A stretch of 64,000 nucleotides of DNA from a virus: positions 1 through 64,000 of the IMG/VR virus record IMGVR_UViG_3300035633_000651, one strand, 5' to 3'. Shown here one piece after another: positions 2,790 to 38,482 of this stretch. The first letter of the stretch is position 1, and every line of letters begins with the position of its first letter. Position numbers and translations under genes: made by a program. The notes beneath the pieces were generated by a model that worked only from the letters and a program-made list of their open reading frames with translations, did no database searches and was not told where the DNA came from.

Positions 2790-3434
2790 AAGCGCTCGCT
2801 CCGCTCCTCGGGTAACCACCACGCGCGCAACCGTAGCGCGCTCCGGGGGAGTCCGCTACGGTTGCGTCGTGGACTACGTCCAACGACACGCCTCCCTCCG
2901 ACACCGTGCTGAGACGCGCCTGGACGCGATGTCATGGGCTGTCGTCCACGCCGCGGCCCTCGGGCTCGACTGGGCACCGACCACGCAGATGGTGGACCTG
3001 GTGGCCTGGAACGGCCCCGGCAAGTCCGGCGTCGTGTTCTCGGTCGAGACCGCCAGCTTCCGCGTCGTGCTGCTGGACCACCAAGGCGCGACCCAGGAAA
3101 TCCTGGAGGTCCTCCTGACGGACCGAGACCGCATCTACACCACAGTTGAACAAGGGGTTGACTACCTGCTGACGCTGCACGTCTAGTGTCGGCCTATGCG
3201 CGTTTGGGTCTGGCACTCCGACACACGAACCTTCCGCGACGTCGAAGCCGAGATTACCAACGGCCGTGCCGTGGTCCGTGGACAGAACGCCGCGGACACG
3301 GGCGTCTACCAGTTCTGGGGGACTGAGCTGCAGGCGGCCAAGGACGCGACGCAGACCGGCATCCGACGTCGTCTGGCGGTCCTCCGCAAGGAAGTCCAAG
3401 AGCTGACCGCCATCGCGGCCGAGATCGACCGCGC

Positions 3435-12602: not shown

Positions 12603-13361
12603 ATGCGCGTCTTGGCCGCCTCCGTTCTCCTCCTCGCAGGTTGTCAGGACGAGACTATCCTGGTCCCCTACACCCCTCCGGACCTTGGCCCTCTTCCGGA
12701 CGCCGGCCCGCCCGACCTTGGCCCGCCTTCGGACGCCTGTGAGCAGGCAGGGCGTGACGGCTTCTGCTACCCCCATCCTGAGGAGACCGCTGGAATCGGT
12801 ATCTGCAACCCTGGAGTCTACCGCGACTTCGCCGGGCAGTGCGTGTGCACGGCTCAGGGGCCGGCGCAGGAAGTCTGCGACGGGGTCGATAACGACTGCG
12901 ATGGAGAGCGTGACGAGGGCTTCGTACGGACGCAGTGCCTCGACGTCCTGCTCATGATCGACGTCTCCTGCTCGATGGACACCAGCGGTCACCTGGAGCG
13001 AGTCCGAGACGAGATCGACGACTGGCTGACCAGTGGTGCGGTCGGGCTCGACGACAACGTCGTCGCCCGTGATCTACACCGAGAGGAGCACGCTTGGCGT
13101 TGGATCATGCAGGAGGTGCCCCTCGTCCCGTGGCGCCTCGCCTGTGCGCGCTGGGCAGTGCTCTTCATCGACGAGACCCAAGAGGGGCAGCGGAACCAGA
13201 CCGAGACGCCGGCCGAGGCCTTCCAGGTCCTGCTCGACCACGACGTGGACCTACTGACCTACGCCATCGACCAGGCCGAATACTCTGTGATCGGCGACAC
13301 GCGGAGCCTCCGGGACCTCGACCTGCACCGCGACGTCGTGGGGCGCTGCGTTAGCCGATGA
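12603..13361 (+). CDS. Lipoprotein with Cys/Asp-rich metal-binding repeat and vWA-like domain
   Basis: Lipobox LLLAGC; EVCDGVDNDCDGERDEG; MIDAS-like DVSCS. Confidence 0.7.
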   Translation: MRVLAASVLLLAGCQDETILVPYTPPDLGPLPDAGPPDLGPPSDACEQAGRDGFCYPHPEETAGIGICNPGVYRDFAGQCVCTAQGPAQEVCDGVDNDCDGERDEGFVRTQCLDVLLMIDVSCSMDTSGHLERVRDEIDDWLTSGAVGLDDNVVARDLHREEHAWRWIMQEVPLVPWRLACARWAVLFIDETQEGQRNQTETPAEAFQVLLDHDVDLLTYAIDQAEYSVIGDTRSLRDLDLHRDVVGRCVSR

Positions 13362-13743
13362 GGTAGTACCAGCGTCCGCCATCGCCCGGACCCAAGGCCG
13401 CGCTGACAGACCCCTCTCGCTGGGCAGCCTCGTACGCCTCGGGCGTTTCGAACATCTCCATCTCGCGGAGGTCGCCAGACACGAACTGCAGAAGGAGCGC
13501 GTTGACCTCCTTGTCCGACATGGCGTCGACTTCCTTCTGGTCCCAAGCGCCCCAGTCCAGAAGCCACCGCCGGACGTACTCCAGCTCTTCGTCCTTCGTG
13601 ACGAGCGGGTGGTCGTTGGCCTCGGCCAGGGCGTTTTCCCAGGTGAATTTCGCAGCGTTCTGCCCTGACTCGGCGACGCTGGACGAATAGTCCATCAAGT
13701 CGTGGTCGTCCCCCAGATACCGCGTGACGTCGATCTCCAGCAT
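13351..13743 (-). CDS. Hypothetical acidic protein, leaderless
   Basis: Preceded by the palindromic promoter motif on the minus strand. Confidence 0.7.
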   Translation of the reverse strand: MLEIDVTRYLGDDHDLMDYSSSVAESGQNAAKFTWENALAEANDHPLVTKDEELEYVRRWLLDWGAWDQKEVDAMSDKEVNALLLQFVSGDLREMEMFETPEAYEAAQREGSVSAALGPGDGGRWYYLIG

Positions 13744-13749
13744 GCCCTC

Positions 13750-13778
13750 AGGCTACTACAAGGCCCGGCGCCTGTCAG
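13750..13778 (-). promoter_or_regulatory. Palindromic leaderless promoter
   Basis: CTGACA-GGCG-CCGG-GCCT-TGTAG-TAGCCT-N6-ATG. Confidence 0.65.
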
Positions 13779-13826
13779 TCAACTTCCCACTTGCGCTTTC
13801 GCGGAACGTCGGTCAAGGTAGCCCGC

Positions 13827-14568
13827 ATGACCCTGCGAGTCCAACTCCGGGCCGCCGAGGGCGGCGCCGACGCACGCGACCTTGTCCGTCTCCAGGCGGA
13901 CATCTACCGGAAGTACTGCGAGCGGAGGGGGCTTTGAGTGGGTTGAAGACCCAGCTTCGAGTCAACGGGATACCGACCGGTGCCGTGAGTATCTGGTCCT
14001 CGGGGACCCGGCTCGCGCCGAATCCGCTTTCGCCAACGAAGCCGGAGGGCACCGTTTTCAGCGCGTTCCGCCTTCTGAAAAACGTGGCCGAGTCCACACG
14101 TCCACGATCACCATTGCCGTCCTGGCAGGTGGAGGTCACAGTCGACGAGGACGACCCGACGCGGTACCACTTCAAAATAAAGAACCAAGGAACCTTGCAG
14201 CGACACAAGAGCAGCTGAAGCTAGAACGCTACAAAGGTGGCAAGGGCGGGCAGCACCAGAACAAGCACGCCAACAACGTCCGGCTCACCCACACGCCGAC
14301 CGGCACCACCGTCCAGGTCGAGGGTCGGTACTTCCACAAGAACCGCGACAAGGCCTACAAGCTCATGGAGGACAAGCTCGCAGCGGCCCAAGCCGCCCGC
14401 GCGCAGGCAGCAGAGGCGGCGGTCGTCGCGGACCAGGTGGGCTCAGGCATGCGCGGCGACAAGGTTATGACGGCGGCACTGCAACGTGACACTGTAGTGC
14501 ATCATGTCACCGGTAAGACGACGACCGCGAAGCGCTACCTCCGCGGCTACGTCGACGATCTTCATTGA
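13827..14568 (+). CDS. Class I peptide chain release factor homolog (no domain 1), expressed via +1 frameshift, about 246 aa
   Basis: Frame 0 MTLRVQLRAAEGG...YRKYCERRGL-TGA; +1 frame has EAGGHRFQRVPPSEKRGRVHTS and GGQ. Confidence 0.9.
13924..13938 (+). promoter_or_regulatory. prfB-type +1 programmed frameshift site
   Basis: GGAGG-GGG-CTT-TGA-G: internal SD 3 nt before CTT TGA. Confidence 0.85.
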
Positions 14569-14704
14569 TTGGCTCGACGGCATCTTGTGTTCGTGAAGGT
14601 GTTTCGGAGCACTCCTCACGACAAGCGTCGCACGATCGCTCTACAGCGAGACTCGGCCGTAGACCACATTGACAACTGGTCGACCACCGCGAAATGCTAC
14701 CTGC

Positions 14705-15715
14705 GTGGCGACTGGTAAGCTCCTCACGCGCGAACAGTTTCGGGAGGCGGTCTTCGCGCGGGACAAGCGTCGCTGCCTAGTCTGCGGGGAGCGCGCACTC
14801 GACGCTCACCACATCTTGGAGCGCAGGCTCTGGCCAGACGGAGGCTACTACCTCGACAACGGCGCCTCGGTCTGCGGCATTCACCACCTCGAAGCCGAGC
14901 GCACCACCATCTCATGTGAGTTCCTCCGAGAGCGCGCAGGTATCGAGCGCGTCGTGCTTCCGCCCCACTTCTACCCGGACACCCGCTACGACAAGTGGGG
15001 CAACCCGTTCGTCGAAGGAACCGAGCGTCGGTACAAAGGCGAACTGTACTACGACGCGTCGGTGCAGAAGATTCTCGACCCAGGCGCAGGCTTCGTTGAT
15101 TACGTGAAGTACCCGCGCACCTATCATCTGCCCACGTCGCCCGGCCTCAACGCTGACGACCGACGCATGGAGCATCTCGACCACCTCCTTGGCCACGAAG
15201 TCGTCGTCACCGAGAAGATGGACGGCGAGAACTGCAGCATGTACCGCGACCACATCCACGCGCGCTCGCTCGACTCGCGAGGCAGCGTGGACCGCGACTG
15301 GGTCAAGAACCTCTGGTCCGGCATCCGCCACGAGATCCCGGACCGCTACCGCATCTGCGGCGAGAACCTCTGGGCAAAGCACACCGTCGCCTACGACGAC
15401 CTGCCGAGCTACTTCCTGATGTTCAGCCTCTGGGACCAGAACACCTGCATGTCCTGGGATGATACCGAGCTGTGGGCTGGCCTGTTGGGTCTGCATCTGG
15501 TGTCGGTGTGCTACCGCGGCGTGTTCGAGGGGCAATCCTTCGAGGACCACCTGCCTCCAGGCGCCGAGGGCTACATCGTGCGCCGGGCTGACGCCTTCTC
15601 GTTGGCCCAGTTCCGCACGCATGTGGGCAAGTGGGTCCGGGCGGGCTTCGTGCCCGAGCACGGGCGTCACTGGCGCCGCGGCCCCTACGAACAGAACGGC
15701 CTTCGAAAAAATTGA
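14705..15715 (+). CDS. HNH domain fused to RNA ligase-family nucleotidyltransferase
   Basis: VFARD..CxxC..AHHI..NG..C..HH; KYPRTYHLP, TEKMDGEN, ICGEN, EGYIVR. Confidence 0.85.
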   Translation: MATGKLLTREQFREAVFARDKRRCLVCGERALDAHHILERRLWPDGGYYLDNGASVCGIHHLEAERTTISCEFLRERAGIERVVLPPHFYPDTRYDKWGNPFVEGTERRYKGELYYDASVQKILDPGAGFVDYVKYPRTYHLPTSPGLNADDRRMEHLDHLLGHEVVVTEKMDGENCSMYRDHIHARSLDSRGSVDRDWVKNLWSGIRHEIPDRYRICGENLWAKHTVAYDDLPSYFLMFSLWDQNTCMSWDDTELWAGLLGLHLVSVCYRGVFEGQSFEDHLPPGAEGYIVRRADAFSLAQFRTHVGKWVRAGFVPEHGRHWRRGPYEQNGLRKN

Positions 15716-19280: not shown

Positions 19281-19354
19281 ACCTCGGTAGACCAACTGGT
19301 AGAGTCAGCAGGTTGAGGGCCTGTCCAGTGTCGGTTCGAATCCGACCCGAGGTA
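19281..19354 (+). tRNA. tRNA-Leu(GAG), short variable loop
   Basis: Loop TTGAGGG. Confidence 0.85.
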
Positions 19355-19366
19355 TGCAGCATTGAC

Positions 19367-19442
19367 GTCCCTGTGGGCAATTTGGTAAAGCCGCTCGTCT
19401 CAGAAGCGAGAGATTTTGTGGGTTCGACTCCCTCCAGGGACA
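19367..19442 (+). tRNA. tRNA-Leu(CAG), short variable loop
   Basis: Loop CTCAGAA. Confidence 0.85.
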
Positions 19443-21102: not shown

Positions 21103-21187
21103 TTTCAGACACTTGCGCGGAGCGCGCAGGGAGGTGCGGGTAGCTCGCCTGGTGCACCGTAGGTGGGGACCAAGCCGTCTGAATTCT

Positions 21188-21263
21188 GCGCGCGTAGCCC
21201 AATTTGGTAGGAGGCAGCGGCTTCAAATCCCGTCCAGTGCCAGTTCGAATCTGGCCGTGCGCA
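21188..21263 (+). tRNA. tRNA-Leu(CAA), short variable loop
   Basis: Loop TTCAAAT; D arm and variable loop like Leu(GAG). Confidence 0.8.
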
Positions 21264-21884
21264 TCCTGACAGACCCTGCTAGACTCCGGAGGTGCCGAAC
21301 CAGCCTCCCAAGAACCGTCCGTTCTGGCAGACGGTCGTGCTTACGCTGGCCACCGGCCTGGGCGGTGCGACGGCGGCCTACTTCGGCGCCACTCAGAACC
21401 AACCCTCAGCGCAGACTGTGGCCGCTGTGGACGCCAAGCAGGACAAGACCTGGGAGGTGACCCACCTGCTCCTCCAGAACATCCTGAGCGACCAGGAGCG
21501 CCTCCAACGGCAGGTGACACGCCTGAACGAACTCTGTACTGAGGGCGCGCAGGAGACGCCCTTCGACGAGGTGGAGGTCCCTCACCGTGACGTGCCGGAC
21601 CACATCGAGGTCGAGCCCGAGGCGGTCCAACGCAAGCTGGAGTCCTACTGATGGCCTTCTCGGTCGGCGACGAGGTGCTCCTCGACGTCACGGTGACCGC
21701 CGGGACCGAGATCCTCACGGACGGCGACACCCGCACCTGGGCCTTGCGGAACCACCGCACGCGTCCAGTGCGCATTCTCAGTTTCTCAGGGGATACGGTT
21801 GAGGTAGAGTTCCTCGACGCTTTGGGGCCAGCGTTCGGCCCGGACGGTTTCTACCCGACGCGGTTTTTGAGACCTCCCGTCTAA

Positions 21885-38407: not shown

Positions 38408-38482
38408 GCGTCGGTAGCTCAGTGGTAGAGCGCCGTGGACTAAGGCCCCCGGAGGTCGCAGGTTCAAACCCTGCCCGACGCA
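38408..38482 (+). tRNA. tRNA-like RNA with abnormal 20-nt anticodon arm
   Basis: Canonical acceptor, D and T arms; arm CCGTGGACTAAGGCCCCCGG. Confidence 0.7.

Follow-up and report, generated by a model that had tools for sequence, protein, structure and literature searches.

Organization of the Locus

The window analyzed here, i.e., the whole stretch of DNA under study, is the first 64 kb (64,000 nucleotides) of a 109.7-kb IMG/VR virus record (IMGVR_UViG_3300035633_000651) that is estimated to be 66% complete; its G+C content is 64%. A release factor (RF) gene is located on the plus strand in two parts that lie in different reading frames. The frame-0 part (13827..13937, plus strand) starts with ATG at 13827 and consists of 36 sense codons followed by a gate stop codon, TGA. 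Its product, MTLRVQLRAAEGG...YRKYCERRGL, corresponds to the start of RF domain 2 and contains the helix-alpha5 motif RAAEGG, and the alignments with the Pfam PCRF and RF1 profiles run across it. The +1-frame part (13936..14568, plus strand) completes domain 2/4 and then encodes the linker, domain 3 with its GGQ, and the C-terminal strand. This frame is open from GAG at 13936 to the stop codon TGA at 14566-14568, and reads ...GGHRFQRVPPSEKRGRVHTS... before reaching GGQ.

The two parts meet at a frameshift cassette (13924..13938, plus strand), in which an SD-like GGAGG (13924-13928) is followed by the 3-nt spacer GGG (13929-13931), the slippery codon CTT (13932-13934) and, directly after it and in frame, the gate stop codon TGA (13935-13937). 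The next base is G (13938) and not C, which means that the weak-termination context provided by C is absent from the window gene. When CTT is read and one base is skipped, the two parts give a joined product of 246 residues (P0001), in which the peptide spanning the frame junction is ...GLEWVEDPASSQR. The shift site falls within domain 2, where a Gly-Trp is found in canonical RFs. A preliminary description of this DNA, made from the letters alone, had reported a 36-codon open reading frame that resembles the start of RF domain 2 and ends in GGAGG-GGG-CTT-TGA, a +1 frame continuing to GGQ, and a shift site within domain 2, and each of these elements lies exactly where it had been placed.

Two other readings of the split were considered and rejected. 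TGA is not a sense codon here (code 4), because frame 0 past the TGA is full of stop codons; this reading is also ruled out by the lack of a suppressor tRNA in the window and by the stop codon usage of its 84 likely genes (TGA for 69, or 82%, TAG for 9, and TAA for 6), in keeping with the earlier remark that many genes of the window end in TGA. A second frameshift in the linker was suggested by the +2 frame at approximately 14130-14218, which gives a plausible-looking 'VEVTVDEDD', but the in-frame reading aligns to relatives with variable insertions and no second event is therefore needed.

Right after the TGA of the RF gene, and in the same frame, there is an open frame of 49 codons (14569-14718, plus strand), the last 32 codons of which repeat the RF C-terminus (DKRRTIALQRD...YLRGDW). 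The repeat shares 72% identity with the C-terminus of P0010, which represents another allele, and 60% with that of the window gene itself. It is probably a recombination scar, left over from allele replacement. Readthrough of the terminal TGA of the RF gene would add this frame to the product.

The next gene (14669-15715, plus strand) encodes a fusion of an N-terminal HNH nuclease motif with an Rnl-type RNA ligase (PF09414, phrog_24030), and its DNA shares 67-74% identity with genes found in Caulobacter jumbo phages such as CcrSC and CcrBL9. Past the ligase gene, an array of 32 tRNA genes occupies 16.0-25.8 kb of the window. No second gene with an RF domain was found in the phage record, and scanning 13600-14900 for promoters and terminators yielded no signal above the shuffled expectation.

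Domain Structure and Motifs of the Joined Protein

In the joined protein, Pfam assigns PCRF to residues 5-96 and RF-1 to residues 128-223. P0001 aligns with the RF1 profile in one stretch that crosses the junction and covers positions 108-333 of 347 (1.2e-35), although its scores do not come close to the RF1 cut-offs (123 bits vs. 400 for NF001859 and 116 vs. 423 for TIGR00019). The match to the RF2 profile TIGR00020 (2.5e-21; 76 bits vs. a cut-off of 370) lacks SPF, and that to the PrfH profile TIGR03072 is confined to the GGQ domain (3.6e-11; 43 bits vs. a cut-off of 166.65). Among PDB chains, E. coli RF1 is the best match (~1e-22), with RF2 behind it (~1e-13). The PDB alignment is unbroken through the junction, where E. 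coli RF1 reads ...YAEARRW-RVE....

P0001 consists of domains 2, 3, and 4 of an RF1-like factor; domain 1 (approximately 110 residues) is missing, as had been noted before. The AlphaFold model of P0001, built on alignment A1, has a mean pLDDT of 86.6 and a pTM of 0.76, and the block around the junction reaches 96. In a Foldseek search with this model, ribosome-bound RF1 is the top match with a TM of 0.77, and the free, closed form of RF1 or RF2 gives only approximately 0.5. The sole disordered part of the model (residues 103-119, pLDDT <50) falls in an insertion of approximately 20 residues in the linker between domains 2 and 3 (14128..14193, plus strand), which alignment A1 shows to be absent from most relatives, and which is partly A+T-rich in this 64% G+C genome. 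The linker of P0010 also has a long insertion at this place, but a different one.

The residues expected of a class-I RF are present. The GGQ motif for peptidyl-tRNA hydrolysis (14245..14253, plus strand; residues 140-142) is invariant in alignment A1. The recognition loop is known to carry PxT in RF1 and SPF in RF2; at this site, the window gene encodes the tripeptide Pro-Pro-Ser (14068..14076, plus strand), in which the first residue is Pro and the third is Ser replacing the Thr of RF1. The RF1-type residues Gln78, His90, and Thr91, which flank the loop, are conserved in alignment A1 and in the PDB alignments. The loop is thus RF1-like, as previously proposed. RF1 without domain 1 has been reported still to release peptides (PMC1586002).

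Conservation of the +1 Gate

A search with the single protein retrieved seven related viral loci, and all seven have the same split. A profile scan then gave 407 stretches in IMG/VR and 421 in a set of one bacterial genome per species, and the best 80 of each were examined. The resulting set comprised 168 related loci, which belong to phages or to bacterial genomes, and splits in them were resolved by a script. A +1 shift is needed in 77 of the 168 loci, which encode 75 distinct proteins, and in all 77 the shift site is a CTT directly before a stop codon, at the same codon of the gene—a pattern far beyond chance. Three additional loci that the script left unresolved (L053, L071, and L158) have the same +1 split by eye, the split alone having been inspected there.

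The window gene itself comes from a single metagenomic contig, and an assembly indel or a decaying pseudogene was considered as an explanation of the split. However, the same split, codon, and hexamer are found in 75 distinct genes with 35-50% protein identity, from independent samples as well as complete genomes; both parts are open and conserved, the N-terminal segment being conserved in frame 0 in all relatives; and the structural model is confident across the junction. An artifact or a dying gene is hence hardly credible, and the recurrence of the split and of the CTT-stop hexamer in 77 loci excludes it for practical purposes. That the two parts form one protein follows from the existence of naturally uninterrupted relatives (P0058, P0097, L020, L094, and others).

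The surroundings of CTT are conserved to different degrees. An SD-like 5-mer is present within 12 nt 5' of CTT in 41 of the 75 distinct shifted genes and in none of 52 in-frame relatives; as a background, such a 5-mer occurs in 3.4% of random 12-mers drawn from these loci. The element is GGAGG, exactly 3 nt 5' of CTT, in 35 of the 75. The base after the gate stop codon is C in 64 of the 75, G in 10, A in 1, and T in none, vs. an overall C content of 32%. Because the encoded residue varies (Asp, Ser, Glu, or Asn), it is the nucleotide after the stop codon that is constrained.

The stop codon itself is not fixed, being TGA in 52 of the 75 distinct genes, TAG in 21, and TAA in 2. In the phylogenetic tree described below, there are sister pairs with different gate codons, for example, L100/L105, L097/L101, and L107/L160. 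The CTTTGA hexamer, the conservation of which the preliminary description had proposed to check in homologs, is therefore retained as CTT plus a stop codon at one position rather than as CTT plus TGA, and its proposal of an RF2-style +1 gate at UGA holds as regards a conserved shift without an indel, but not as regards specificity for UGA or RF2 across the family. Overall, the conservation of the sequence argues that the prfB-style +1 frameshift gate in this RF1-like factor without domain 1 is real. The position of the gate is not homologous to that of the prfB site.

Other Putative Gates at or near the Same Position

Most of the remaining relatives are interrupted in other ways. Approximately 65 of them are in frame and are interrupted by one TGA only, at the site of the conserved Trp codon (GGY TGA A); examples are L012, L014, L024, L064, and L089, in each of which the TGA is located at approximately 3090-3100 of the locus. 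These relatives are mostly from huge phages of 35-48% G+C, and their other Trp codons are TGG. The TGA at the Trp site occupies the protein position of the slippery CTT, and is thus one codon upstream of the stop codon of the shifted group. It is a putative gate that would work by readthrough where the shifted group has its frameshift gate. Only approximately 11 of the 168 loci are uninterrupted.

A few loci deviate further. L044 and L062 have an in-frame stop codon right after Leu (CTA TGA) or Tyr (TAT TAG) at the gate site, and L050, L103, L140, and L152, one of which is on a Cupriavidus plasmid, have an in-frame TGA approximately 12 codons further on. Two low-GC loci, L109 and L135, contain two in-frame TGAs each and may come from recoded genomes.

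These variants bear on a reading in which the frameshift serves as an attenuator of fixed ratio, which keeps a potentially toxic RF at a low and roughly constant level and senses nothing. Overexpressed RFs are indeed toxic (PMC12421855), any stop codon serves as the gate within the family, and in approximately one-quarter of the shifted relatives not even an SD-like element of 4 nt is present, all of which would fit a simple attenuator. However, expression could be reduced more simply by a weak start site. Moreover, three stop-dependent devices, namely, the +1 shift, TGA at the Trp codon, and a stop codon after Leu or Tyr, recur at this one spot, which suggests that the stop codon itself is the selected feature, and the weak-termination context (C after the stop codon, never T) is kept. 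We therefore regard a mere attenuator as unlikely.

Phylogeny and Distribution

In an IQ-TREE phylogeny of 85 representatives with RF2 as the root, all short factors group in a single clade (SH-aLRT 97), the sister of canonical RF1. Uninterrupted members are basal, shifted genes make up most of the tree, and the group with TGA at the Trp codon is one nested clade (98). The window protein is on a long branch, which makes its exact place unsure.

The short RF gene is frequent in large phages and sporadic in chromosomes of Myxococcota. Among GenBank phages, it is found only in two uncultured huge phages, LR745206 and LR745208, where it is unannotated, and PHROGs contains no matching short family. 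Chromosomal copies are present in the complete genomes of three Myxococcota, namely, Archangium gephyra SDU49, Minicystis rosea DSM 24000, and a member of the Nannocystaceae, where they adjoin ordinary cellular genes (for a glycosyltransferase, DUF1569, a GDSL lipase, and a TPR protein). The gene had been described as a phage gene, which is correct as to its presence in phages, but it is not confined to them. A profile search of 151 Myxococcota genomes gave mostly canonical RF1, with an extra copy in only one or two genomes.

The canonical prfB genes of Nannocystaceae ST9 (L179), Archangium gephyra (L180), and Minicystis rosea (L181) all carry the cassette SD-CAT-CTT-TGA-C, and the likely host lineage therefore performs such shifts. 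These prfB sites are located at approximately 1509-1518 in each of the three loci, and the 6 nt after the prfB stop codon (CCTCGA in Archangium) are those found at many of the short-RF gates. The window also encodes, at 12603-13361 on the plus strand, a predicted lipoprotein-like protein with a Cys-rich metal-binding motif of the MopE type (PF11617, below the cut-off). Such motifs are typical of Myxococcota, and this one fits a myxobacterial host for the window phage.

Genomic Neighborhood and Relation to PrfH

The neighborhood of the gene varies among the relatives. When the flanking open reading frames of the 168 loci were clustered, no conserved neighbor emerged around the shifted genes except for overlapping spurious open reading frames. 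The presence of tRNA genes no more than 3 kb away in 51 of 87 viral loci points to a tendency of the short RF gene to lie in or near the phage translation module.

The neighborhood in the window invites comparison with PrfH (RFH), an accessory factor that likewise has no domain 1 and that acts with RtcB2 on ribosomes damaged by ribotoxins. By analogy, the short RF could be a stop-independent rescue or repair factor working with the HNH-RNA ligase, the gene for which comes next to it, the tRNA array following. Several features speak against this. The PrfH profile matches the GGQ domain only, the decoding loop and its residues are of the RF1 type rather than the PrfH type, and the ligase is of the Rnl type and lies within 3 kb of the RF gene in only 3 of the 168 loci. 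In particular, because the ligase is not a conserved neighbor, a repair pair resembling PrfH/RtcB is unlikely, and we consider the rescue reading as a whole very improbable. No PrfH gene is known to be gated by a frameshift.

Proposed Mechanism and Function

The reading that we favor, and consider probable, is that the two parts constitute one short RF1-type release factor gene, gated by a +1 frameshift, for an accessory factor that terminates translation at UAA and UAG. In this mechanism, the ribosome would pause with peptidyl-tRNA-Leu on CUU (13932-13934) and UGA in the A site, while the SD-like GGAGG, 3 nt to the 5' side, would pair with 16S rRNA. The tRNA would then re-pair on UUU, and decoding would pick up at GAG (13936) to give the 246-residue factor; termination at the gate UGA would instead release a useless peptide of 36 residues. 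The yield of the factor would thus be inversely tied to the speed of termination at the gate. Because the gate in the window is UGA, the relevant activity would be that of host RF2. The product would act as an accessory RF1-type factor reading UAA and UAG, within a phage translation module beside the 32-tRNA array. The split gene, its cassette, the conservation of both, and the RF1-like fold and motifs are features of the genes and of the predicted protein, whereas the occurrence of frameshifting, its response to RF2, the stop codons that are read, and the benefit to the phage are what we infer from them.

Certain points do not sit easily with this reading. One is the G after the gate stop codon of the window gene, where 85% of the relatives have C. 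Another is the free variation of the gate codon among TGA, TAG, and TAA, which suggests that selection may not be for the sensing of RF2 specifically. The earlier proposal that the phage senses low UGA termination is plausible for the window, in which UGA is by far the most frequent stop codon, but on the evidence of the related genes it may not be what selection keeps. Furthermore, a factor specific to the RF1 codons could serve only approximately 18% of the genes of the phage, which makes its benefit hard to see, and the loop sequence PPS instead of PxT makes its codon specificity uncertain.

In an alternative reading, the factor recognizes every stop codon, or in any case UGA, and the gene would show true autoregulation of the prfB kind and would top up UGA termination, the route by which most genes of this phage end. 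The third loop residue, an invariant Thr in RF1, varies in the family, the loop tripeptide of the shifted group being PPT, PPN, PPS (as in the window), or PPG, i.e., Thr, Asn, Ser, or Gly at this residue. In addition, the drift of the gate among TGA, TAG, and TAA between close relatives is as expected if the product reads any stop codon. On the other hand, the loop starts with Pro and the pocket of Gln, His, and Thr is of the RF1 type. The loop variant is also unlinked to the gate codon, with 24 TGA to 12 TAG among PPT genes and 17 to 6 among PPN genes, and a factor that accepts G at position 2 together with a purine at position 3 would risk reading UGG. On balance, the reading of UGA by this factor seems rather unlikely, though its chance is not negligible.

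A wider form of this idea, to which we give a similarly small but appreciable chance, is that the short factors represent a third lineage, a mobile one, of bacterial-type class-I RFs, which read any stop codon by virtue of a relaxed recognition loop, are controlled by interchangeable recoding gates, and act as emergency terminators. If so, phages and some Myxococcota would use the factor when the host is short of working RF1 or RF2 or has either of them disabled, and its synthesis would be wired to the failure of termination, via either the shift at CUU-stop or the readthrough of UGA at the Trp codon. For the gene in the window, an accessory UAA/UAG factor under a +1 gate remains our preferred reading.

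Comparison with Known Systems

The +1 frameshift at CUU-UGA is a textbook case of translational autoregulation, and to our knowledge this switch has so far been described only for bacterial RF2, to which it is regarded as unique. The window gene shares with prfB the order of GGAGG, 3 nt, CTT, and TGA, the +1 direction, the class of the gene (class-I RF), and the use of a stop codon as the gate. Unlike prfB, it is an RF1-type paralogue with the site in domain 2, at codons 36-37, and not in domain 1, and its base after the stop codon is G and not C. The family as a whole also differs from prfB in that the gate is not restricted to UGA (TAG in 21 of 75), an SD-like element is found in only approximately half of the genes, and the members gated by TGA probably do not read their own gate. 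In a 2025 survey, none of 8,164 frameshifted prfB genes had a TAG gate, and no programmed frameshift was found in prfA (PMC12421855). According to the 2016 recoding review by Atkins et al., RF genes had at one time been expected to use an in-frame stop codon as a gate, but no such case is known for either RF2 or RF1 (PMC5009743).

Canonical RF1 (prfA) is the closest relative, giving the best profile, sequence, and fold match and sharing GGQ, the Gln/His/Thr pocket, a loop resembling Pro-x-(Thr), and the position as the sister clade. Unlike RF1, the short factor lacks domain 1, scores below the cut-off (123 vs. 400 bits), and has a PPS loop in the window; it is also recoded, accessory, sporadic, and often borne by phages. 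For prfA, programmed frameshifting has been reported never to be used (PMC12421855, PMC5009743). Our search of the literature found no paper describing frameshift-gated or stop-gated genes of the RF1 type.

Termination factors encoded by viruses are known from the Lak, Agate, and Jade phages and, as eRF1, from giant viruses. The RFs described for the recoded phages have no interruption, retain their full length, and are linked to a change of code (bioRxiv 10.1101/2021.08.26.457843), unlike the window, which has no suppressor tRNA and predominantly TGA-terminated genes. The RF gene of Megavirus and Mimivirus needs both a frameshift and readthrough (PMC3521657), but it is of the eukaryotic eRF1 type.

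A large and diverged family of short RF1-type genes thus uses the prfB cassette at a different place, which adds a new item to the ways in which large phages take control of host translation. The free choice of UGA, UAG, or UAA as the gate codon, together with the sister group having an in-frame UGA, provides a natural experiment on what stop gates sense. In addition, a compact RF without domain 1 is expected to be of use for structural and synthetic-biology work.

Unusual tRNAs in the Window

Outside the array, a further tRNA gene is found at 38408-38482 on the plus strand, with a strong score in Rfam (57.7 bits). Its anticodon arm of 20 nt has a stem of 6 bp, in which one pair is a U-C mismatch, and a loop of 8 nt, ACUAAGGC, which holds AAG/UAAG, complementary to the slippery CUU(A). 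Expanded-loop tRNAs are classic suppressors of +1 frameshifts, and this tRNA was considered as a part that promotes the shift. It is close to none of the other tRNAs of the window, and no counterpart was found at the eight tRNA-bearing loci that BLAST with the arms of this tRNA hit in five related complete phages, for which reason the candidate was dropped.

Within the array, three tRNAs with Leu anticodons (GAG, CAG, and CAA), located on the plus strand at 19281-19354, 19367-19442, and 21187-21266, are 74-80 nt in length and are without the long variable arm of bacterial tRNA-Leu, whereas those of the related phage G002 are normal, at 82-84 nt.
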